Positions 6,340 to 62,770 of a stretch of 64,000 nucleotides of DNA are shown here, in pieces. Location: NCBI RefSeq assembly GCF_964194155.1, contig NC_135894.1:71982001-72046000 (forward strand). The letters are read 5' to 3'. The stretch comes from Cetorhinus maximus (taxonomy: Eukaryota). The notes under the pieces were generated by a model that was given only the letters and a program-made list of their open reading frames with translations, searched no databases and was not told the origin of the DNA. Each line of letters begins with the position of its first letter. Positions within the stretch are counted from its first letter, which is position 1. Made by a program: the position numbers and the translations under genes.

Positions 6340-7075
6340 TAAATTCATTGTACAGGATGTGTGTGTCGCCAGCTAGGCCAGCATTTATTGCCCATCACCT
6401 TCTCAAGGGCAATTAGGGGTGGTGAGCTGCCTTCTTGAACCGCTGCAGTGTAGGTGCTGTTAGGGAGGGAGTTCCAGGATTTTGACCGAGTGACAGTAAA
6501 GGAACGGCATCATGACGATGAGTGGCTTGGAGGGCAACTTCCAGGTGGTAGTATTCCCATCTGTCTGCTGCCCTTGTCCTTCTAGATGATAGTGGTTGTG
6601 CGTTTGTAAGGTGCTGCCTAAGGAGCCTTGGTGAGTTTTTGCAGTGCGTCTTGTAGATGGTACACACTGCTGCCACTGTTTGTCGTTAGTGGAGGGAGTG
6701 AATGTTTGTGGAAGTGGTGCCAATCAAGCGGGCTGCTTTGTCCTGGATGGTGTCAAGCTCCTTGCGTGTTGTGGGAGCTGCACTCATCCAGGCAAGTGAA
6801 GAGTATTCCACCACACTCCTGACTTGCGCCTTGTGGACAGGCTTTGTGGAGTCAAAGAACAAAGAAGAACAAAGAAAAGTACAGCACAGGAACAGGCCCT
6901 TCGGCCCTCCAAGCCTGCGCCGATCATATTGCCCGTCAACTAAAACATTTTGAAAGAACAAAGAAAAGTCAGGAGGTGAGTTACTTGCCACAGGATTCCC
7001 AGCCCCCCGACCTGCTCTTGTAGCCACTGTATTTATATGGCTAGTCCAGTTCAGTTTCTGGTCAATAGTAACCCA
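6340..7075 (-). mobile_element. Family A LINE, 5'-truncated 3' fragment
   Basis: VEYSSLAWMSAAPTT..LDTIQDKAARLIG, followed by the tail ending ..gtacaatgaat. Confidence 0.9.
6855..6966 (-). mobile_element. Short CR1 family B (HER1/HE1-like) 3' tail nested in the family A copy
   Basis: Tail ggagggccgaagggcctgttcctgtgctgtac plus ttctttg repeats on the minus strand; AGTCA duplicated at 6850-6854 and 6967-6971. Confidence 0.8.
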
Positions 7076-9894
7076 CGCTTAATGGATCAAAATTCTGGTA
7101 GATTTTGGATGAAATCGGAGGTTTAACTCGGCTCAGTTTTTTTCTTAAGTCTATACAGAACAAGCCTTTCTATTGAATTTATATTTGTACTGCAGAATTG
7201 TGTACTATAATTGTGTACTATAGAAAGAAACCTGTAAATGTCACCTAAATTTTGGGCACATGTCCGTAAATTACACATTGTAAACAGATCTGTGGAGCAG
7301 CGTTGACGCTGAGGTTATCTAAAGATGAACTCTGAAATCGAGTATTACTGGCTGACTGAAATTATACTGCATTCTAGCTGGCACAGTTCAACCATCCTGA
7401 GATGAACTGTTTGATCAAATTCATGTTAAATATTTTTTAAATCATCCTTAAATATAGAAAATCTGGAATAGTTACTCAAAGATGCTACTCCAAATTCTGA
7501 GGCATGTTTCACATTTACTGCTTTTTGGTGTACCTTTTAAATTAAATTCACCCAATGAATAGCTAATGAAAATTGACCGATTTAAGAACCTAGTAACTTC
7601 TAATCTTTTAAAAATTAGACTGGCTCTCGCATGCAATTTGTTTACATTTCAAAATCTAGTGTATGTAACAAACTTACATGCACTGGGCTAAATTTATTGA
7701 GATTGCCTCAGTAAGCTGATGTTAATTTTGGTTAACGTATACGATGTTCTTACTGTGTTTGTATACCAGTTCTGCTCCAAGTGGCTGATTGATTACAGTA
7801 GGATGGTCAAATGAATTTGCTGCACTCGATGTAAAAATATATTTTTAAATCATTTTCTATTGTGCTATTTTTGATTCTGTAGCTAGTGAAATTGGCCCAC
7901 CTTGTGTGTCTGTGTAACCCCCATCAGACTTCCACTGTTAATTGGCTATTGATCATGTGCTTTGACAGATTTCTTCAGTATTATTTGGTTGAGCAGATTA
8001 ATTTGTCTGTGATCAATGAACTATCTTTAAAAACTACGTGCAAACTTTATTTTACTGGAACTAGTCTGGTGCCTCAAAATTTTACGTAATATTTTTCCTC
8101 TGAAGTGGTCATCACCTCAGTCTGTGTTATGTTACATAGAATTACGTGGAGTATACAGCATAAAGGAACCATTTGGCCCAACTGCCCTACACAAGCCTGC
8201 TTCCTGCTTTCTTCATATTTTTCTATTCCTTTCTCCCTCGTGCTTACCCAGATTCCCTTTTAAATGTATACAACTTGTCAAAATCCATCTCCATGTTGCT
8301 GTGTGTTTCATCTAGATTTAACGTATACTTAAGGAATAGGTACTGATGACATAGGACTATAGGTTTGACTACAGTGAAAATGCATCTTTGAATACCAGTG
8401 GAAGAGTTTGGAAGCGTCTAGGTGTTGGCTCTCGTTGCCAGTGTGGTGAGATTTGTGAATTTAAAGTGGAATGAGAGTACGTTATGTAGCCGAACTTGAC
8501 AAAATTATATTCTCATTTACAAATGTGAGAGGAAGCTTACATTACATTTTATCCAGAGGCTTTTTGGTTTTGTTGAACAGCTTCAATTTTATGCTGATCT
8601 AAACCATAATAGGAGGAGTGGAGGAGGAGGAGGCTAATGATTTAATGCAGTTCTAATCTCTGATCAAACAAAATTCACTTAAAATAGGTCAACACTGTTG
8701 ATATATAAATTGATTTGTGGCAATTTTCTGTCCCATTTGGGTTTTTACATGGTCTAAGACCGACAGTAGTAAACCTGACTGTTGAGATGCAGAAAATGCA
8801 GTTGGATGGGAACCAGATATATTCTGTTAAGTGAATGGTATTAAAGCCCTAGCACATTTGGAAGCCACAGAAATTTAAACTCCAGTGCTTTTCTTAGTGG
8901 GAGAATAAATATTTTGGCTGATGAGAGATCCAGTGTCCTCTTTGGTCAGAATGGGTGTTGGTTTCTCATTTTTGGCTCCATGCCTCTTATAAAATGTCAC
9001 TTTGTCAAGATAGGAACTCAGTGCAGAGTTAAGCACTGAATCTTACGACTCTGGAAAGCACTATTGTGGTTTGTCCTATTACAGTTTTGCTCAGTATAAG
9101 TAAAGTGTGGAAATTTTGACAAGTGTTGGTTAAACAGTGTTGGTACAATATTACATGAATTCCTGTGGCATCATGAGATGTCTCAATGTTACATTGTGGG
9201 TTTCTATCTGTAACTGTGTTGTCACTTGGTGAAATCTTAAATGGAATATGTTAAGGTTGACTAATGTGACCTTTTGCTGTAAAATCATTTTGCTCTAATC
9301 TTATTGCTTTCTGGCAGAGCATCTTTCTGAAATGATTAGCTTTCATATCTGAAAAAATATGCATTTCTATTACTTTCTGTCCAATTTTTATTTAAAAAAT
9401 TCAATCAGTACCATTTCCCTTTATCAAAGTTTTTTTCGATGCTGAACTAACCCAAAACAAGAACAAAATAAATGAAATTTACTTGAGTGAATAATGCTGC
9501 CTTATTTATTTTGGGGCAGAAGAAAAAGGGGATCTCTTTATCGCGCTGTCACTTTCGTGCGTGCGCTCAGCCTCGCATACTCTCAGTCTGGCTTTACCCC
9601 GCATTATGTTGAGGGGTGTATCATGGGCTGTGGTGGTTCTTGTGTGGCTTGTCCTAGTGGCAGTTTTTCATGCATGAGCATGGTGTTTGCGTGGAGGCAT
9701 ATTATTTGTCGAAACAATAATTAAAGCCAAGCCTGTTGTAGCTCTTTTCTGATGACCACACATCGTATGTTTTTATCAGCGGTCTAATAATGAACAGGGA
9801 ATTGGGGAATGGACAACGTCTGCTTCTTTCCTTGGAGATGCCGAGACAAAATGAGATTAGCAAACTCTATTTAAAGCCAAGACCTTGCAGGTAG

Positions 9895-12519: not shown

Positions 12520-12612
12520 TTAAGAGTCATTAGACTCAAAACATTAACTCTGTTTTTCTCTCTCCACAGCTGCTGTCAGATCTGCTGAGTTTTTCCAGTA
12601 CTTTGCTTTTGT
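12520..12612 (+). mobile_element. Penelope-like terminal relic
   Basis: gactcaaaacattaactctg..gctgctgtcagatctgctgagtttttccag is homologous to 51498-51560. Confidence 0.75.
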
Positions 12613-19500: not shown

Positions 19501-20710
19501 AGATTGGAAACCCTTGTGTGAAAGACATAGTTCAGTGAGACTGGTTGGCTCACAGTGTGACAAGTGTCTGGTGGGAAGTTGAGGAGAGATATAGCATTTG
19601 GTTGAGGTGGCACCTGTCACTTGGTTTCAGAGTGCAGTGTGTCTGACCGCAGGTCACCATAGGTTTACTTGGACTGTGTACTTCCTGTGGACAATAAAGT
19701 ATAAGATAGCTTTTGTAACTTGTTATCCTTACAAATCTGTATATATTTGTAAAGGTATAGTTGTGGTGTAGGAGTATTGTAATATAGTTCATCTTTTCTT
19801 GTTTAATATATGTTTTATTCTTGTGTTAAACGTTAATTAGCAGACTCCTGTGTCTGTTCAGTAGCTACTTTCTACATATCTAAATAAACAAAATTAAAGG
19901 TAGGTTTTATCAAGCTGGTTTCCACTCTGGGATCAAGCTTGTCCAGGGTAACCTCAGCAGGGATCATAACACTCCTCAGATACTGAAGCAGTCTGTGTCC
20001 ATATGCAGCGAGACCTGCACACCTCCCCATGACATTCAGTGGCATTACCATCACTGAATATCCCACTATTTATGTCCTGGGGGTTATCATTAGCCAGAAA
20101 CTGAACTGGTCCAGCCATATAAATACTGTGGCTACAAGAGCAGATCAAAGGCTGGGAATTCTGAGGTGAGTAACTCATCTCCTGACTCCCCAAAGCCGGT
20201 CCACCTTCTACATGTCTGGAGTATGATTGAATATTCTCCACTTGCCTGGATGAGTGCAGCTCCAACAACACCCAAGAAGCTCAACATCATCCAGGACAAA
20301 GCAGTCCTCATGATTGGCATCCCATCCACCACCTTCAACGTTCACTCCCTCCACCACCATTACACAGTGGCATCAGCGGGTACCATCTACAAGAAGCACT
20401 GCTGCAACTCGCCAAGGTTCCTTGACGGCACCTTCAAAAACTCTGACCACTACCACCTAGAAGGACAAGGGCAGCAGATGCATGGAAACACCACTACCGG
20501 CAAGTTCCCTTGCAAGTCATACACCATCCTGCCTTGGAACTATAGTGCTGTTCCTTCACTCTCTGGGTCAAAATCCTGGAACACTGTCCATAATAGCACT
20601 GTGGGAGGATTGTAGCGGTTCAAAAGGTTGGCTCACCACCATCTTCTCAAGGGATGGGCAATAAATGTTGACCTAGCCAGCGTCGCCCACATCCTGTGAA
20701 CAAATAAATT
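16550..20710 (+). mobile_element. Family A LINE, head-to-tail copy with internal deletions, interrupted by a solo LTR
   Basis: tRNA-like head from ~16555 (ctggactaataattcgg; B-box ggttcagatcc), APE fragments, GPDNIPAIVLKT, GVPQGSVQGP; resumes at 19972; tail cacatcctgtgaacaaataaa. Confidence 0.92.
18628..19971 (+). mobile_element. Solo LTR (1344 bp), gypsy- or ERV-type
   Basis: TGTTA...TAACA termini; 4-bp TSD cccc/ctcc (intact family A copies read gactcctcag); splits the LINE RT cleanly; AATAAA near 19693 and 19882; no gag/pol. Confidence 0.88.
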
Positions 20711-21299: not shown

Positions 21300-22665
21300 C
21301 TTTGGATAAAGATACCGCAAAGGCTATGGGCCCTGACAATATTCCGGCAATAGTACTGAAGACTTGTGCTCCAGAACTTGCCGCACCCTTAGCCAAGATA
21401 TTCCAGGTACAGCTAGCACACTGGCATTTACCTGGCTAAGTTGAAAAAATACACAGGTATGTCCTGTACACACAAAGCAGGACAAATCCTACCCGGCCAA
21501 TTACTGCCCCATCAGCCCACTTTTGATCATCAATAAAGTAATGGAAGGGGTCCTCAACAGTGCTATCAAGTGACACTTGCTTAGCAAGAACCTGCTTACT
21601 GACGCCCAGTTTGGGTTCCGCCAGGGCCACTCAGCTCCTGACTTCATTACAGCTTTGTTGGAGGTCAGTCGTCTCAGCTCCAGGACATCAGCGCAGGAGT
21701 TCCCCAGGGTGGTGTCCTCGGCCCAACCATCTTCAATTGCTTCATCAATGACCTTCCTTCCATCATAAGGTCAGAAGTGGTTGCTGATGATTGCATGATG
21801 TTCAACAGCATTCGTGACTCCTCAGATACTGAAGCAGTCCACGTCCAAATGCAGCAAGACCTGGACAATATCCAGGCTTGGGCTGACAAGTAGCAAGTAA
21901 CATTCACGTCACGCAAGTGTCAGGCAATGACCATCTCCGGCAAGAGAGAATCCAACCATTGTCCCTTGATGTTCAATGGCATTACCATCACGGAATCCCC
22001 CACTACCAACATCCTGGGGGGGTTACCATTGACCAGAAACTGAACTTGACTAGCCATATAAATACTGTGGCTACAAGAGCAGGTCAGAGGCTAGGAATCA
22101 TGCGATGAGTAACCTGACTCCTCAAAGCCTGTCCACCATCTACAAGGCACAAGTCTGGAGTGTGATGGAATACTCCCCACTTGTCTGGATGAGTGCAGCT
22201 CCCACAACACTCAATAAGCTTTACACTGTCCAGGGCAAAGCCCGCTTGATTGGCACCACATCCACAAACATTCACTCCCTCCACCACCGACGCACAGTCG
22301 TAGCAGTGTGTACCATCTACAAGATGCACTGCATGAACTCACCAAGGCTCCTTCGACAGCACCTTCCAAATCCACGACCACCCCCATCTAGAAGGGCAAG
22401 GGCAGCAGATAGATGGGAACGTCACCACCTGGAAGTTCCCCTCCAAGTCACTCACCATCCTGACTTGGAAATATATTGCTGTTCCTTCACTGTCACTGGG
22501 TCAGAACCTTGGAACTCCCTTCCTAACAGCACTGTGGGTGTACCTACACCATGGACTGCAACGGTTGAAGGAGGCAGCTCACCACCTCCTAAAGGGCAAT
22601 TAGGGACGGGCAATAAATGCTGGCCCAGCCAGCAACACCCACATCCCGTGAATGAATATAAAAAC
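21300..22665 (+). mobile_element. Family A LINE, 5'-truncated, with internal deletion in RT
   Basis: AMGPDNIPAIVLKTCAPELAAPLAK; QFGFRQGHSAPD; MEYSPLVWMSAAP; tail cccgtgaatgaatataaaa. Confidence 0.92.
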
Positions 22666-23234
22666 ATGTTCTCCTAAATAGGGTTTTATTCATGAGGCTG
22701 TTAACCATCTCTTCTCCATAAAGCTTTTTTAAAAAAAAAACTTGTCCTTATTTCCTTTCTTTTAAAGATAAAGCCTTTTGTGCCAGTGCATGTGAGCCTC
22801 AAGGCTTTGAATAAGACTTGCTGAAACATGTTAGCTTCGACTCTACCTTTTGTCCTATGTATTTACTGAAAAATTTTGATATACTTGTGATTCTCTATTG
22901 GAAAGTTCGTGTGAAATACCACATTGAGGATTTTAATGTTCTTTCTTGTATTTTTTTTCTTGTTTAAATTTAGATGTTTGCTCTCGAGTAATAGTTTGTC
23001 ATTTCAAATTTTTAAAAAAACTTCTATCTACATAAGTTTTTGACTTCCCGGTTAAAACTTCGAGAGCATGCTTTCAGAACATGAACTTTGATGTTCAGCT
23101 TGCTCAAATTCTAGACCTGGCTTTTTTTTTTCACCTACCTGATAGACTCATAATGGCAAAAGGAATGCTTTGAACTGTTAATGTTGTGACTATTTTGAAA
23201 TTCCTTCAACTGTAGGTTGAGGTAAAGAAAGAAA

Positions 23235-27411: not shown

Positions 27412-27490
27412 ACTAAAAACAGAAAATGCTGGAAACACTCAGGTCTGGCAGCATCTGAAGAGAGAAACAGAGCTAGTGTTTTCAAGTCAT
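27412..27490 (-). mobile_element. Penelope-like terminal relic
   Basis: aaaaacagaaaatgctggaaacactcaggtctggcagcatc. Confidence 0.7.
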
Positions 27491-31067: not shown

Positions 31068-31318
31068 ATAAAAACAAAAAACTACTGCGGATGCTGGAAA
31101 TCCAAAACAAAAACAGAATTACCTGGAAAAACTCAGCAGGTCTGGCAGCATCGGTGGAGAAGAAAAGAGTCGACGTTTCGAGTCCACTTGACCCTTCAAC
31201 AGAACTGAGTATAGTTAGGAGAGGGGTGAAATATAAGCTGGTTTAAGGTGGGGGGCGGGGGGAGAGAAGTTGAGGGTGGGGTGGTTGTAGGGACAAGCAA
31301 GCAGTGATAGGAGCAGAT
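31068..31318 (-). mobile_element. Young Penelope-like 3' terminus with hammerhead motif
   Basis: Homologous to 50227-50450 and 51460-51620; hammerhead-like AGTT-CTGTTGA-A-GGGTC-aagtg-GACTC-GAAACGTC-GACT at 31206-31168. Confidence 0.85.
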
Positions 31319-44334: not shown

Positions 44335-44432
44335 GGGTGCTGACAGAAGATGTACACCCGAAATGTTTAACTCATCTATCCTTGCCGCAGCTGCTGATGC
44401 ACTGTGTTTATAGCATTTTCTGTTTTTGTTCC
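44335..44432 (+). mobile_element. Old Penelope-like terminal relic
   Basis: ctgacagaag..cccgaaatgtttaactc..gctgctg..agcattttctgtttttgtt. Confidence 0.55.
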
Positions 44433-46209: not shown

Positions 46210-46468
46210 TTGTATCTTTTTTATGGGTCTTATGTATGCATTTATGCTTAGGTTCGTAACTGCTAGACACAAATCTAGAAGCTGCATTGCGATGCGATTA
46301 TTTTGATAAACACACGGCACTATTCCAAACTTTGGTGAAAGAGAAAAATTGCTACGTTTCAAGCTGTTTGGAGATTTTTGCTAAGGATGCATTCACATGA
46401 AGTACTGCCTGTGTTGTGTCTAAAGCATTTTCACCTGTGGCTAGTCAGCCAATTTCTATTTGCCAGTG

Positions 46469-46680
46469 ATAAAAACAAAAAACTGCGGATGCTGGAAATC
46501 CAAAACAAAAACAGAATTACCTGGAAAAAAACTCAGTGGGTCTGGCAGCATCGACAGAGAAGAAAAGAGTAGACGTTTCGAGTTCTGTTGAAGTGTCATG
46601 AGGACTCGAAACGTCAACTCTTTTCTTCTCCGCCGATGCTGCCAGACCTGCTGAGTTTTTCCAGGTAATTCTGTTTTTGT
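46469..46680. mobile_element. 212-bp fold-back Penelope-like mini-element with hammerhead
   Basis: Inverted pair of termini; TTTCTATTTGCCAGTG duplicated at 46453-46468 and 46681-46696; hammerhead motif at 46580-46620 (+). Confidence 0.9.
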
Positions 46681-46696
46681 TTTCTATTTGCCAGTG

Positions 46697-46945: not shown

Positions 46946-47551
46946 AATTGTATACTTCCACCCTCCTCAACTCTATTTTGAGTTGGCAGTAACCACACAT
47001 AAAGTAACCATTTCAGATCACATGGAAGGGTATCAAGTGGTCCAGTGGCCTGCATGTTTTCTGCTATTTATTTCTCCCTTTTATTTGTTGAAACTGCTTT
47101 GTAATTTGAAAAGGGGGTTATTTCTTGGGGATGAGGAGAATTCTACTGCAGAGCTGTGTTAGCTACAGGGATGTGACACCTAACAACTAGCATGTTTTTT
47201 GCTAGCCGTTGAACCGGGTAAATGTTTTGTTATGGAACAACTATTATTGGCAAATATTTTATTCCTCTTAATCTAAAATGTGCACATATTACCTCCCCAA
47301 GCCACCACCTCCCAGCCATCCCTCTAGATTGTGGGCAGCCTCTACAAAGGAAGAATTATAAATTTAGTAACTTTAAGCCTGAATTTCTTTAAGCTGTGAG
47401 GAAATGTGTGAAAGTGGTTTACTGTGTGACAATTACCTTGTATTAGTGAGTAACAGCTGAATGAGCTTGCATTTAGCTTCTAAGCAACACAGTTGCAGCA
47501 AAAGCTGTACTGTAGATAACTCAATAATACTGTAGATAACACAAGATATAA

Positions 47552-47682
47552 CACAAAAGCAAAATACACCAGATGCTTGAAATCTGAAATAAAAATTGAA
47601 AATGCTGGAAACACTCAATAGGTTAGTCAACAATATTGGAGAGAGAAACAGAGCTAACATTTCAGATCAATGAACTTTCAAG
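47552..47682 (-). mobile_element. Old Penelope-like terminal relic
   Basis: aaaagcaaaatacaccagatgcttgaaatctgaaataaaa..gctggaaacactca. Confidence 0.7.
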
Positions 47683-48610: not shown

Positions 48611-50284
48611 TTACTGTCCAGGTGAAGACAAAATTTGCCCCATTAAATTTCTTGTCCTGCAATGGTCCCTGAAGACTTAGGCCCCGTTTTAGCCTGACAC
48701 ATCCAGTTGGAATGGGTGGGTTTGGGGCAAATTCCTGCTTTGCACTCCAGCCTAAGCACACCCCATTACAGCAAGCGGCTTAGACTGAAATGGGGTATTT
48801 ATGTTTGCGGTGGCTCTCCATATTCGTAATATAATTTGATGACTTTTTTCAATAGTGCTGTCAATCTTGAAAGAATATCTTGTCATTGGCTGTTTGCTCT
48901 TTATATACTAATGAAGCTTTTTTACCGTAATATTGGGCTATGATTAATTTACATTTCAAAATGAGTGGGTATATTTTGCATTATTTTGTGAGGTGCCTGG
49001 TTTTGTGAATTTCTCAATTAGATTAAAATGTGATTGTTTTATTTGCAAATTCTAAAATGGGGATGCGCTTTTGTAATGATCACTTATTTTAGTGACTTGG
49101 GGGGGAAACCAGTTTTGCAGCTGGTATATTAAACTATTTGGTCTGTTGAACAGAGGGGATTTTGCGTTAAATTTTTGATTCCCTTTCATGACTTATGCCC
49201 TGTATTGTCTTCTATTATACTTTTCTCTCCAGATCTCCTCTTACTTCAAAATAAATTTTGTTTCACTAAATATAAAATTACAAATTTGTTCTCAATAATT
49301 AAAAATTCAGATATGAAAAATACATTTTTTACTGAAATGTATTTTTTTTTTAAGTGCTTGGCAATTACTTGCTTCTTGATTAGAAGCTGCATTACTGAGG
49401 CAGGGTCCTTTAATACAGTGTTTCAATGCATAGGATTGAACTCCCAGTGCACATTTGCTCAAAAATTAGTAGTGTTGTACATAGTGTGACTTTTTAACCT
49501 AGTTTCATGATGAAAATAAATGTGTTAAATCTATACTTTTGTAGGAAATCTTTGAAGTAGATTTATAAATAGCATGCACTGTTTTTAAAAATGCCTCAGT
49601 GATTGGAAAAAAAACCTCAGGAGAATATTTGTGAATCTGAAAGTAACATTATAAAAGGAGTCCCCATTTTGGGGATTCCCTAAAGGGGTTGGAGTGTAAT
49701 GTGACCTGTATTTTAAGCATTTGTGTAGGCACTTTTTAGCTAACTGACAGATGCAAGGTTCTCACAACCCATTTAAATATAGCCTGCTGGAAGAATATAC
49801 TTGCATTTTTTTAAACACTGAAGTAAACCTTGGGTGAAGTTCTCCTTGTTTCTATTTAGTGCCTGGGTTTTTCCATTTCTGTTGACTCAAAAAAGCTGTT
49901 GAATTTGTATAAAGTAATCTTTTGCCTGACTACAAACTTTGAATAACTACTGTTTACATTTAATACTTAGATTTTTCTAAATTTTGACATTACAGCTGAG
50001 TTTTATTTTACAATTCACACCTGTATCTCAGTACTCTGTAAAAGCCAATTGTTCTATTAGGGTTTCCTGTTACTAGGGGTATATAAATGGAAACCAGTTT
50101 GAGGTATTTGTAACTGAGAGTGAAACTTTTTCCAAATATAAAAGGGCTACAAAAGCACATTACCAGTCATTAATACATCCTCAGAGTTGTAATACATGCT
50201 GGATTTGACCTGTTCCTTAAACATATCAAAAACAAAATTACCTGGAAAAACTCAGCAGGTCTGGCAGCATCGGCGGAGAAGAAA

Positions 50285-50327
50285 TCAGTTAACGTTTCGA
50301 GCCTTCATGGCCCTTCGGCAGAACTGA
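50285..50327 (-). ncRNA. Minimal type I hammerhead ribozyme motif (variant core)
   Basis: TCAGTT-CTGCCGA-A-GGGCC-atgaa-GGCTC-GAAA-CGT-T-AACTGA on the minus strand. Confidence 0.7.
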
Positions 50328-50711
50328 AGCATAGTTAGAAGAAGGGAGAAATATAAATTGGTTTAAGGTGGTTGGGGGGGGGCGGGGGGGCGGAGAGAGA
50401 GAGAGAGAGAGAGAGAGACATTGAGGGTGTGGTGATTGTGGAGATGAGCAGATAATCAAAAGATGTCACAGACAAAAGGGTCAAAGAGGTGTTTTGTCTG
50501 AGAAAAGTGCCAATTAAGAATGGAGGACAGGATATTCAAAGTACAGCTCTAGTGGGGGTGGGGTGGAAAGGCTAACAAGGTTTTAGTTTTAGATTTAAAA
50601 ATAATGGAAATAGGTGGGGAAAGAAGAATCTATATAAATTATTGAAAAAAAAGGTGGGGGTGGTGGGGAGGGGGGGGGAAGAAACGGGGTGGGGATGGGG
50701 GGAGGGGGAGT

Positions 50712-51449
50712 TTAAGATCTAAAGCTGTTGAATTCAATATTCAGCCCGGAAGGCTGTAAAGTGCCTAGTCGGAAGATGAGGTGCTGTTCCTCCAGTTTGC
50801 GTTGGGCTTCACTGGAACAATGCAGCAAGCCAAGGACAGACATGTGGGCAAGAGAACAGGGTGGAGTGTTAAAATGGCAAGCGACAGGGAGGTTTGGGTT
50901 TTTCTTGCGGACAGACCGCAGGTGTTCCGCAAAACGGTCGCCCAGTTTGCGTTTGGTCTCTCCAATGTAGAGGAGACCGCATTGGGAGCAACGAATGCAG
51001 TAGACTAAGTTAGGGGAAATGCAAGTGAAATGCTGCTTCACTTGAAAGGAGTGTTTGGGCCCTTGGACGGTGAGGAGAGAGGAAGTGAAGGGGCAGGTGT
51101 TGCATCTTCTGCGTGGGCATGGGGAGGTGCCATAAGTGGGGGTTGAGGAGTAGGGGGTGATGGAGGAGTGGACCAGGGTGACCCGGAGGGAACGATCCCT
51201 ACGGAATGCCGTCGGGGGGGGTGAAGGGAAGATGTGTTTGGTGGTGGCATCATGCTGGAGTTGGCGGAAATGGCGGAGGATGATCCTTTGAATGCGGAGG
51301 CTGGTGGGGTGATAAGTGAGGACAAGGGGGACCCTATCATGTTTCTGGGAAGGAGGAGAAGGCGTGAGGGCGGATGCGCGGGATATGGGCCGGACACGGT
51401 TGAGGGCCCTGTCAACGACCGTGGATGGAAAACCTCGGTTAAGGAAGAA
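50712..51449 (-). CDS. C-terminal part of PLE polyprotein: RT thumb, Cys-rich linker and GIY-YIG endonuclease (5'-truncated)
   Basis: By my reading the frame is open from FLNRGFP through VPLVLTYHP, AFRRDRSLR, CPRRRCNTC, NLVYCIRCSQCGLLYIGETKR..RFAEH, HFN and GLN to TAA at 50712 (~245 codons). Confidence 0.88.
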   Translation of the reverse strand, partial: FFLNRGFPSTVVDRALNRVRPISRASALTPSPPSQKHDRVPLVLTYHPTSLRIQRIILRHFRQLQHDATTKHIFPSPPPTAFRRDRSLRVTLVHSSITPYSSTPTYGTSPCPRRRCNTCPFTSSLLTVQGPKHSFQVKQHFTCISPNLVYCIRCSQCGLLYIGETKRKLGDRFAEHLRSVRKKNPNLPVACHFNTPPCSLAHMSVLGLLHCSSEAQRKLEEQHLIFRLGTLQPSGLNIEFNSFRS

Positions 51450-51473
51450 GGAGCTATGCTTCTTAACTATGCT

Positions 51474-51516
51474 TCAGTTCTGCCGAAGGGCCATGAAGGC
51501 TCGAAACGTTAACTGA
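51474..51516 (+). ncRNA. Minimal type I hammerhead ribozyme motif (variant core)
   Basis: Stem I TCAGTT/AACTGA, core CTGCCGA, stem II GGGCC/GGCTC, GAAA, palindromic ACGT stem III. Confidence 0.7.
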
Positions 51517-51949
51517 TTTCTTCTCCGCCAATGCTGCCAGACCTGCTGAGTTTTTCCAGGTAATTTTGTTTTTGTTTTGGATTTCCAGCATCCGCAGTAG
51601 CTTTTAGCTTTTTGTTTTTATCCTTAAACATATGTTGGCTTGGAGGTATAGTCTCAATTAAATGCCTTTTGACTGTTCTACGCTAGTTTGAAAAGGATCC
51701 CTAAAACTTAGACTTTACTATTAGTTTGTCTGCCTCTTTTCCCTCTAAAAGAATTTGTGCACTTGAAAAAATAAAAAGTTGCGATCAAATCTTGTACATT
51801 TATAGGCAATGTGTGCTTATATTGGGAATTATAACCAGCAGACCAATTCAGTCAATGGGTTATCGTACAAGCAGAATATTGGTTTGCTTTTTTAAAGATG
51901 TCTTTCACAGTTATCTGTGCACCATTGGTTTTTGATTGTGTTGCATTTT

Positions 51950-52320: not shown

Positions 52321-54391
52321 TAAATTGAGTTGTTAATTATCTTAATTATTAATGTTTTAATTTTCTATTGCTCATGCTGCCACTTTTTCAGTTAACAAAA
52401 GCCTTCAGCAGTAAATGCTGAAGGTAAAACCATAGCAGTATTTCCTAGTTTCACCTTCTGTTGTCAATGTCTGTTATTTGAAACAAACGAGCACTCGAGC
52501 ACCATTTTGTGTCAGTATCTTAATCCTCATTCTTTCATGTCAGTTTTTACCAGTTTTCAGAGTGGCTTTGATAGCACAGCCCCCTTTCTGAAATCACACT
52601 TTTGACCTTGATTTGTCTATGTGCATGAAATTTATTTTCATTTTAAGATATGGACAAAATGACAGTGAAATCCGAACACTGAAAACCAAAATGGCTTCCA
52701 AGGCCATGCATATATGTACAGTATGCAGACTTTATTTTTGTTCATGCTTGATGAACAAAAAGATTTCGAGATCAGATTGTTCTGATACTTTGATCTGTAC
52801 AAGAATAGAGCTGAATGGAATAAGACAGGATATTGTGAGACTGAGGTTTGAAACTTACTTAAATTCTAATGGATTTTACCATTTTTCAGATTTGTCCTTT
52901 GCATGGATGAGATTGTTACAAAGAACACATATGTTAATGAAATCTGAAACTATTTATACTGCATTGTCATCTAGCTTATATTTAGTTATGGAGAACACTG
53001 TCATTTTGGAGAACACCGGTAAAGCTCTGACTTGGACTAGTTGTTTTCTAAAGGCTGGTTTGTGCAATAAAAATGGAGCATTATGGTTAACCTACTTCTG
53101 TTGCATTAAATTTCATTTAAGAGAAGCTTTTTTAAAGAATCTTCATTTTTCATTCGTAATTTTTAATATTCGCAATTACTGCATAATCTGGCCAAAGTTA
53201 AGTGCAGAATTTTTTCTCTCTCATTTAGTCATGTGCCTACAAGACTGGGAAAAATCTTTGTATTTTAGAAGTAAGAAAAGTTGATTCAACAAAGAACTTT
53301 TGGTAGCATTTTAAGCCAAAAATTAAAGTAAGCACTGCCAAATATTGCCATACTGTCCTGAAGCATACTAAAAATATTTTTCAAAATCTATTTTTAAATA
53401 GTTATTTTTCAAATGGAGCCTATCTGGCATATTTCACATGGAAAATGTACTGTGTTCCTGGGCGAACAGTATCCCCAGAAGTGTCCCTGATTCAAGAAAC
53501 TCATCATCAAATGAATACCTTAATAATTAACTCTGCGCAGATTCAAATCAAGAGCCATGTGACCCCGAACTGCCCTGCAATAAATAAATAAAATGTGTGA
53601 CTGTGTAGTGAAGTGGTTTCTGATTGGTGGCAGCAATGACAATCTCCTATCTTCAACCACTAGAAAACCACTGAGTGATTTTAATTTATGCAGAGATTGT
53701 GCTCTGTGACTGCAATTTGGTGAAGGGAACACAGCTTCAGGGCCAAAATGCCTAAGTAATGTGGAACTAATGATGGTGGCTGGAGTTGGGCAGTGTGGAT
53801 GTCCCAGGAGCTAAATCAGAGCATGCTCCATAGTCTCAGATGGCGCGAGTGCATTTTGGGCTGTCCCCCCCTCCTGGTTTTGAAAGTATGGTCGCCCCAA
53901 TTTAGCAATCACTTAGAAATTCACAGATGACTATACAAACCACCTTGTACATATTACTGTTGATCTAAATTGTATTTGAAACACATTTACCTGAACATAT
54001 ATATTTTCCCTCAGTATGGTGATTATTTCAAACGTTGCTTACATTAACATCCCATGAGTATTCAGCTTTATCCTCGTAGCAGACTCTTGACCAATGGAAA
54101 ATTCGGGCTGTGTGAGTCCACTAACAGGAAGAAGGAACCGAATTTAGCTGTGCAAGTTTAGTGGTTGTCTCGCATAACCTGGTCTTCTAGAAACGCCAGT
54201 TGCTGAATAGTTAACCATCTAACCAAATTTCACACCCACTCAGCCAATCGTGATCATATAGCTATTCTAAGTGAGCGGTTAATGAATATATTAACAAGAC
54301 CAATGAGATGGATTCCTATGTGCACACATTTTTACATTGGTATAAACAACACTATAAAGGGGTATGGGGAGAAAGAGTAGGTAAAATGCAT

Positions 54392-54428
54392 AACAAAAAC
54401 AGAATTACCTGGAAAAACTCAGCAGAAC
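54392..54428 (-). mobile_element. 37-bp Penelope-like micro-insertion
   Basis: aacaaaaacagaattacctggaaaaactcagcagaac flanked by TAAAATGCAT at 54382-54391 and 54429-54438. Confidence 0.85.
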
Positions 54429-62600: not shown

Positions 62601-62693
62601 AAGTAGTTGGGAACTGGGTGCAACTTTTTTTTATATAAATGCCTGCATAGCTATCAGCTATGTGAATCAGTGAAGAGGCTGTTTTGCCTAGTC

Positions 62694-62770
62694 AAAAACA
62701 AAAACAGAAATACCTGGAAAAACTCAGCAGATCTGGCAGCATCGGCGGAGAAGAGCAAAGTTGACGTTTC
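62694..62770 (-). mobile_element. Young Penelope-like terminal fragment
   Basis: caaaaacaaaaacagaaatacctggaaaaactcagcagatctggcagcatcggcggagaag..gttgacgtttc; truncated inside the hammerhead. Confidence 0.85.

Follow-up and report, generated by a model that had tools for sequence, protein, structure and literature searches.

Minimal type I hammerheads occur in the pseudo-LTRs (pLTRs) of metazoan Penelope-like elements (PLEs), in the sense of the ORF; their activity as dimers is low, and a circle model has been proposed for them (Cervera and De la Pena 2014, PMC4209133). That report also describes a D. virilis intron that ends at helix I. Among EN+ PLEs (Neptune/Nematis), a single ORF codes for a reverse transcriptase (RT), a CX2-5CxxC linker and, at its C-terminus, an endonuclease of the GIY-YIG type, and partial tandems, an inverted 5'-truncated copy and a tail at one end are found (PMC8557442). 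According to the latter source, canonical hammerheads are universal outside Naiad/Chlamys, Naiads proliferate without them and Craig et al. consider that hammerheads may simply parasitise PLEs. The hammerhead of an anole PLE (Anolis Poseidon PAc; Frangieh 2024, PMC11167929) cleaves only with protein; in vitro, cleavage was not needed for insertion, templates cut back past the C3/G8 core were still inserted and core mutants had no effect. Rate effects of A6 changes come from other hammerhead scaffolds: the phage Bcep176 hammerhead has a natural A6C and a rate under 0.1 per min (PMC3088659), a C6 hammerhead cleaves poorly in Mg2+ and well in Mn2+, at 0.3 per min with 1 mM Mn2+ (PMC7151607), and single changes in CUGA lead to low activity (PMC9901934). 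Drosophila Penelope has an internal promoter (PMC2377424). No report of position-6 variants in PLEs was found in the full-text literature, mostly without subscription papers; an earlier notice is possible.

The window analysed here, the whole 64,000-nt stretch of Cetorhinus maximus DNA, contains at 50214..51633 an element whose hammerhead-like motifs share with those of PMC4209133 the location in the pLTR, the ORF sense, a bulged base after A9, the G10.1-C11.1 pair, palindromic 15.2/16.2, a monomer without helix III and a GUC or GUU cleavage triplet. They differ at position 6, which is C or U in the shark; the core change named in the main text of that report is U3-A8. The canonical hammerheads described as universal in PMC8557442 likewise contrast with a shark lineage without A6. 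C6 is the same CUGA-turn substitution as in Bcep176 (PMC3088659, PMC7151607); the latter is a single phage sequence, whereas the shark motif is present in thousands of copies on a minimal, dimer-dependent scaffold, also takes U6 and is known from sequence alone. The element resembles EN+ PLEs (PMC8557442) both in its ORF and in its tandem, inverted and one-tailed copies. With PAc (PMC11167929) it appears to share two internal regions where RT starts, both downstream of the hammerhead, as well as an uncleaved RNA template and an AT-rich target; judged by the linker, PAc belongs to another clade.

Layout of the insertion and its surroundings

The 13-bp direct repeat TCCTTAAACATAT, recorded in the preliminary description as a target-site duplication, is present at 50214..50226 (left) and 51621..51633 (right). 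Between the two, the minus strand carries the 3' pLTR (50227..50341), which is the short-tail end, its terminus lying 90 nt before the position that the ATG has in intact copies. This pLTR includes a hammerhead-like motif of minimal type I in ORF sense (50285..50327; core CUGCCGA from 50321), the fold of which is supported by covariation. It is adjoined by a 3' UTR (50342..50711, minus) that contains runs of G as well as a GA microsatellite and aligns with the 3' UTR of intact copies, and by a 5'-truncated ORF (50712..51455, minus) with the last 247 residues of a 917-residue protein, including the Cys linker and GIY-YIG. On the plus strand, an inverted pLTR arm (51464..51620) forms the long-tail end; it stops 36 nt before the ATG position and is 5'-truncated about 16 nt before C3. 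The arms 50222-50337 and 51464-51579 (116 nt) are 97% complementary, in keeping with the near-identical inverted pLTRs reported earlier.

A second hammerhead-like motif lies in the inverted arm (51474..51516, plus). Its helix I is formed by 51474-79 and 51511-16, and the core CUGCCGA, also reported earlier, occupies 51480-86 and is followed by a bulged A, a 5-bp helix II (GGGCC/GGCUC), GAAA, a palindromic ACGU and U17 at 51510. The motif of the other arm has these elements too. Cuts are predicted after 51510 for the plus motif and after 50291 for the minus motif. As they lie on opposite strands, the motifs point away from one another. A cis dimer at the locus was ruled out because each strand carries a single motif. 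In a read-through RNA the two arms would pair, with a duplex energy of about -215 kcal/mol.

The frame described as uninterrupted was recovered as 253 residues without stops (50712-51473, minus), with a GIY-YIG Pfam match above the cut-off (E 2.6e-5) and a C-X4-C-X2-C linker; the ORF fragment has five amino-acid differences from an intact young copy. The frame has neither RT nor ATG and its initial six codons derive from the inverted arm and the junction; the copy was therefore dead on arrival. The locus is identified as a 5'-truncated, head-to-head insertion of a young Neptune-type PLE; by itself it is an ordinary dead insertion.

The sister copies noted earlier carry CUGUUGA at 31162-31210 (minus) and 46577-46625 (plus). 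The U6 class is also represented by an older insertion at 46468-46694, which consists of head-to-head pLTRs alone and is bracketed by a direct repeat about 13 bp long. Other pLTR fragments, from the same family or from related ones, are found at 12532-12612, 27415-27467, 31070-31262, 47550-47663, 54384-54425 and 62692-62770. Two relics were said to keep A at position 6. Both do (15506 and 44340), and both are decayed, one with G5 changed and one with an extra base; that at 15506 matches a different, older A6 helix II class and that at 44340 is too decayed to place. The window also contains a decayed non-LTR retrotransposon (377-2673; RVT_1 match, E 5e-26) and relics like it at 6686-7078, 20094-20615 and 22054-22677.

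The family, its fold and position 6 of the core

Genome counts cover the whole assembly (4.0 Gb). With the window protein as the query, 149 of the 150 matches listed were 97-98% identical; with the N-terminus of a sister copy, 125 of the 150 listed were in frames of at least 900 residues (counted by eye). The full-length RT-endonuclease copies that the preliminary description called for thus exist: the intact ORF of 917 residues comprises RT, the C-X4-C-X2-C linker at residues 783-791 and, at its C-terminus, an endonuclease of the GIY-YIG type. In the 917-residue ORF of the sister copy, the DKG and YIDD motifs are present and the RVT_1 (E 8e-7) and GIY-YIG (E 4e-4) matches are both slightly below the Pfam cut-off. 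Every complete motif on copies with frames of at least 900 residues (12 loci) has C6. The tandem unit is 3,291 nt; inverted partners are frequent among the mapped copies, and partial tandems and a one-sided tail are present. On its single RT/GIY-YIG ORF, pLTR-forming partial tandems and inverted truncated copies, the family is classified as an EN+ PLE, and its assignment as Neptune-type comes from the CX2-5CxxC linker between RT and endonuclease, a feature common to Nematis too. Among homologues with a name, the nearest belong to the bamboo shark Chiloscyllium (65-69% identity); others are unnamed or 'uncharacterized'. One locus (L070:1263-5501) has a 1,412-residue open frame with an apparent internal duplication of the C-terminal region. 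pLTR sequence related to L062:6400-6700 was found in public contigs of four organisms, from runs presumed to be RNA; alignment to such contigs showed neither RNA ends nor a splice joint and did not cover position 6.

The window motifs have the minimal type I layout, with helices I and II around the core and a palindromic helix III seed. Read against C3 U4 G5 A6 N7 G8 A9, G12 A13 A14, A15.1-U16.1 and H17, the core deviates at A6 only. The cleavage triplet is GUU, also known in published minimal hammerheads (PMC4209133). An Rfam search gave no hammerhead match for the window motifs at E<=5. The isolated 43-nt motif folded modestly better than shuffled sequences (z -1.77; 12 of 200 shuffles as good), and the fold is supported by covariation, not by energy. 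Across 18 hand-picked copies, pairing was 97.5% in helix II and 77% in helix I, two helix II pairs were altered on both sides and covariation exceeded that of 500/500 shuffles, in which relatedness is not taken into account. At -23.3 kcal/mol, the hammerhead fold of the dimer was not favoured over two monomers (-25.6 kcal/mol) or the dimer minimum (-28.2 kcal/mol). In position and predicted fold the motif is like a PLE minimal hammerhead, with A6 absent.

Searched as an exact pattern in the whole assembly, the helix II class of the window had C6 in 8,542 of 8,575 copies, the other 33 being 27 U, three A and three G. The sister class comprised 14,430 copies, 34 of them with A6; positions 6/7 of the first 100 listed were 78 UU, 18 CU and four CC (by eye). 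An older helix II class had 6,751 copies (69 U6, 24 A6, five G6 and two C6 among the first 100 listed, by eye), and a looser canonical pattern returned 3,426 A6 copies, chiefly of older types. The best 30 pLTR matches had C6 in 29 and U6 in one, with no A6. A sample independent of the motif was drawn with a downstream anchor (94,546 matches), for which 98 of the first 100 listed matches were fetched, giving 102 anchor copies, of which 83 could be scored and the other 19 were truncated or decayed. Among the 83, U stood at position 6 in 36, C in 26, A in 18 and G in three; one C row (L259) is a short A-type copy that was mis-registered. The remaining core positions were invariant in 74-83 of the 83 copies, a constancy somewhat inflated by a scoring filter that required a partial core match. 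Exceptions at G12 were G12-to-A in single copies, at a CpG. The minority G6 form (L229, L230 and L258; 3/83, 5/100) falls in a transitional class and is possibly a short-lived sub-lineage.

Post-insertion decay as the origin of C6 and U6 was ruled out by the whole-genome counts, and CpG decay cannot yield a majority of U6U7 where the pattern holds two CpGs intact. Canonical CUGANGA in the subfamilies, named earlier as the outcome that would refute the variant reading, was not what these showed. The counts identify C6 and U6 as states of the source elements, fixed in the family, and not as decay.

The tree was built from 48 copies with at least 150 residues of endonuclease attached, with positions 6 and 7 masked. 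It is a ladder, with terminal branches of 0.05-0.06 for A6, 0.03-0.04 for U6 and 0.025 down to 0.003 for C6; the root was placed by hand on an A6 copy and the direction comes from the branch lengths. Some A6 copies, chosen by the A6 pattern, are nested among U6/C6 and are best read as sporadic mutations. Because of the ladder shape and the branch lengths, we conclude that one lineage passed from A6 to U6 to C6, with A6 lost once, before the largest amplification waves counted. While C6 was in place, one U-A pair of helix II was replaced by C-G, and L190 has the U.G intermediate. Constraint was estimated from column differences between seven old and 13 young real copies. Fixed differences were found at 0/13 core-associated sites, 16/44 flanking unpaired pLTR sites, 49/281 UTR sites and 9/105 fourfold sites. 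These figures suggest, without proving it, that the other core positions are constrained, as the core value is significant solely against the flanking unpaired sites (P 0.007; 0.09 against the 3' UTR and 0.34 against fourfold sites).

Copy ends and tandem repeats

Efficient cutting of linear RNA should make 5' ends cluster at the predicted cut, 153 nt before the ATG. Ends were mapped for 123 ATG-bearing copies from 99 loci, with three duplicate loci and a single row that stayed unresolved set aside; long frames had been the reason for choosing 12 of the loci, and each head-to-head partner was counted. Of these copies, 27 end downstream of the upstream cut site, two end within 3 nt of it and 94 run through; ten contain a full extra unit. 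No pile-up was seen at the predicted cut (3/97 in a 9-nt window, with 1.1 expected; P 0.095; 9% as the upper 95% bound). None of the 102 anchor-picked copies ends within 3 nt of it, and one young copy does so among the first 100 listed (by eye). The missing footprint is uninformative on A6 versus C6/U6, since the anchor sample includes older A6 classes that also lack cut-site ends.

Thirty loci were used for the 3' ends, the thirtieth of which continued into the ORF. The 29 mapped ends form two groups, 33-39 nt (12/29) and 78-97 nt (17/29) before the ATG, and all lie beyond the predicted cut, by 56-120 nt. Both groups are in the 5' leader, whereas RT starts inside the ORF in PAc (PMC11167929). 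All eight head-to-head pairs among the 30 loci (L284-L309), as well as the window copy (50227/51620), have one long-tail and one short-tail arm, as if the two target strands had been primed at different RT start sites.

Tandem repeats of the same locus had ten differences in 15,082 nt, compared with 0.40% between loci, and minor alleles were common to both repeats 22 times as against two (18 pairs); two discordant minor alleles were present in L108. From this near-identity and allele sharing, the repeat seems to be remade from one template in each cycle, via a circle or strand transfer.

The 5' ends cluster near the 5' edge of helix I, in about 16 of the 102 anchor copies (same lineage, by eye; some apparent ends belong to other families without a matching reference) and in about ten of the first 100 young copies listed (by eye). 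Among 94 ATG-bearing copies, 4.4 would be expected to end inside the motif and eight do so, a weak excess (P 0.08). This edge (51460-51479 in the window, and equivalents) has a branch-point-like motif, a pyrimidine tract and YAG, the tract and YAG being present in most subfamilies, and we take it to resemble an initiator. It may be an RNA start, a splice acceptor or an RT pause.

Competing explanations and significance

We lean towards a weakened hammerhead, in which A6 was lost to U and then to C in the source elements of a very abundant, recently active family for which cleavage is largely dispensable. Under this proposal the C6/U6 motif likely cuts far more slowly than a canonical hammerhead, the family likely transposes from RNA uncut at the predicted site, reverse transcription would begin downstream of the motif, at two sites 56-120 nt from it, and copy through it, and selection would still maintain the fold, either for a structural role or for residual cleavage that is slow or assisted by protein. 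The lineage kept multiplying after the A6 change; fast cutting was therefore probably not needed for its spread. The preliminary description had left a choice between a variant ribozyme and a relaxed fold. The relaxed reading fits better, because U, C and, in a minority of copies, G have replaced A at position 6, and because published A6 changes strongly lower cleavage in Mg2+ (PMC3088659, PMC7151607, PMC9901934); a single adapted variant fits less well. Against the weakened motif it has to be said that read-through is also expected from a cut-and-religated circle, which the near-identical tandem repeats fit as well as they fit strand transfer. It is rather unlikely, in our estimate, that the motif is a working variant ribozyme, with the C6/U6 motifs of a tandem transcript cutting and rejoining with the element protein or Mn2+ to give a 3.3-kb circular template that yields partial tandems by internal priming. 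The unchanged catalytic G8 and G12 and other core bases across subfamilies (save the single-copy G12-to-A at a CpG), the repeats apparently regenerated from one template and the full extra unit in 10/123 copies agree with such a ribozyme, as do the Mn2+ rate of the natural C6 phage hammerhead (PMC7151607), the protein-assisted anole hammerhead and the circle model already proposed (PMC11167929, PMC4209133). Three different non-A bases at position 6 speak against it, as do the unfavoured dimer fold and the discordant alleles of L108, which fit a linear or switched template; leaky ligation should moreover leave linear cut-site ends, of which no excess was seen (3/97). A conditional hammerhead, in which A6 loss would silence cutting during transcription and the protein of the element (or Mn2+) would trigger cutting and circularization of the 3.3-kb RNA templating the partial tandems, is unlikely; protein rescue is plausible since the anole ribozyme required its protein to cleave.

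The clustered 5' ends at the edge of the motif, the tract and YAG found there in most subfamilies and the D. virilis intron that terminates at helix I (PMC4209133) would suit a catalytically dead motif, kept as an RT pause or strand-transfer point, as a protein-binding fold or because a transcription start or a splice acceptor coincides with the 5' edge of helix I. The excess of such ends is weak in ATG-bearing copies, some of those in the anchor sample stem from other families, and the core was dispensable for anole insertion, where core-deleted templates and core mutants alike were inserted (PMC11167929), which also lends no support to the earlier idea of a fold retained for RT recognition; we regard a dead motif as unlikely. 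It is very improbable that the motif is passive cargo, free of selection and conserved-looking merely through the youth of the lineage. Zero fixed changes in ten core sites are compatible with the fourfold-site rate (P 0.41), and the parasitism suggested by Craig et al. (PMC8557442) would accommodate such cargo, but compensatory, pairing-preserving changes in helix II followed the loss of A6, and 16/44 flanking unpaired sites changed.

A6C in one phage hammerhead was known and the PLE layout is textbook; it is the scale and the ordered A-U-C series that make the role of these hammerheads testable. As 65 of the 83 scoreable copies are without A6, searches that demand CUGANGA miss most motifs in this genome, so that it may be worth searching 'hammerhead-less' PLE families again with a relaxed pattern. 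Here one lineage offers a natural A6, U6 and C6 series, with ordered waves and many intact copies, so that cleavage rate could be compared directly with transposition success.
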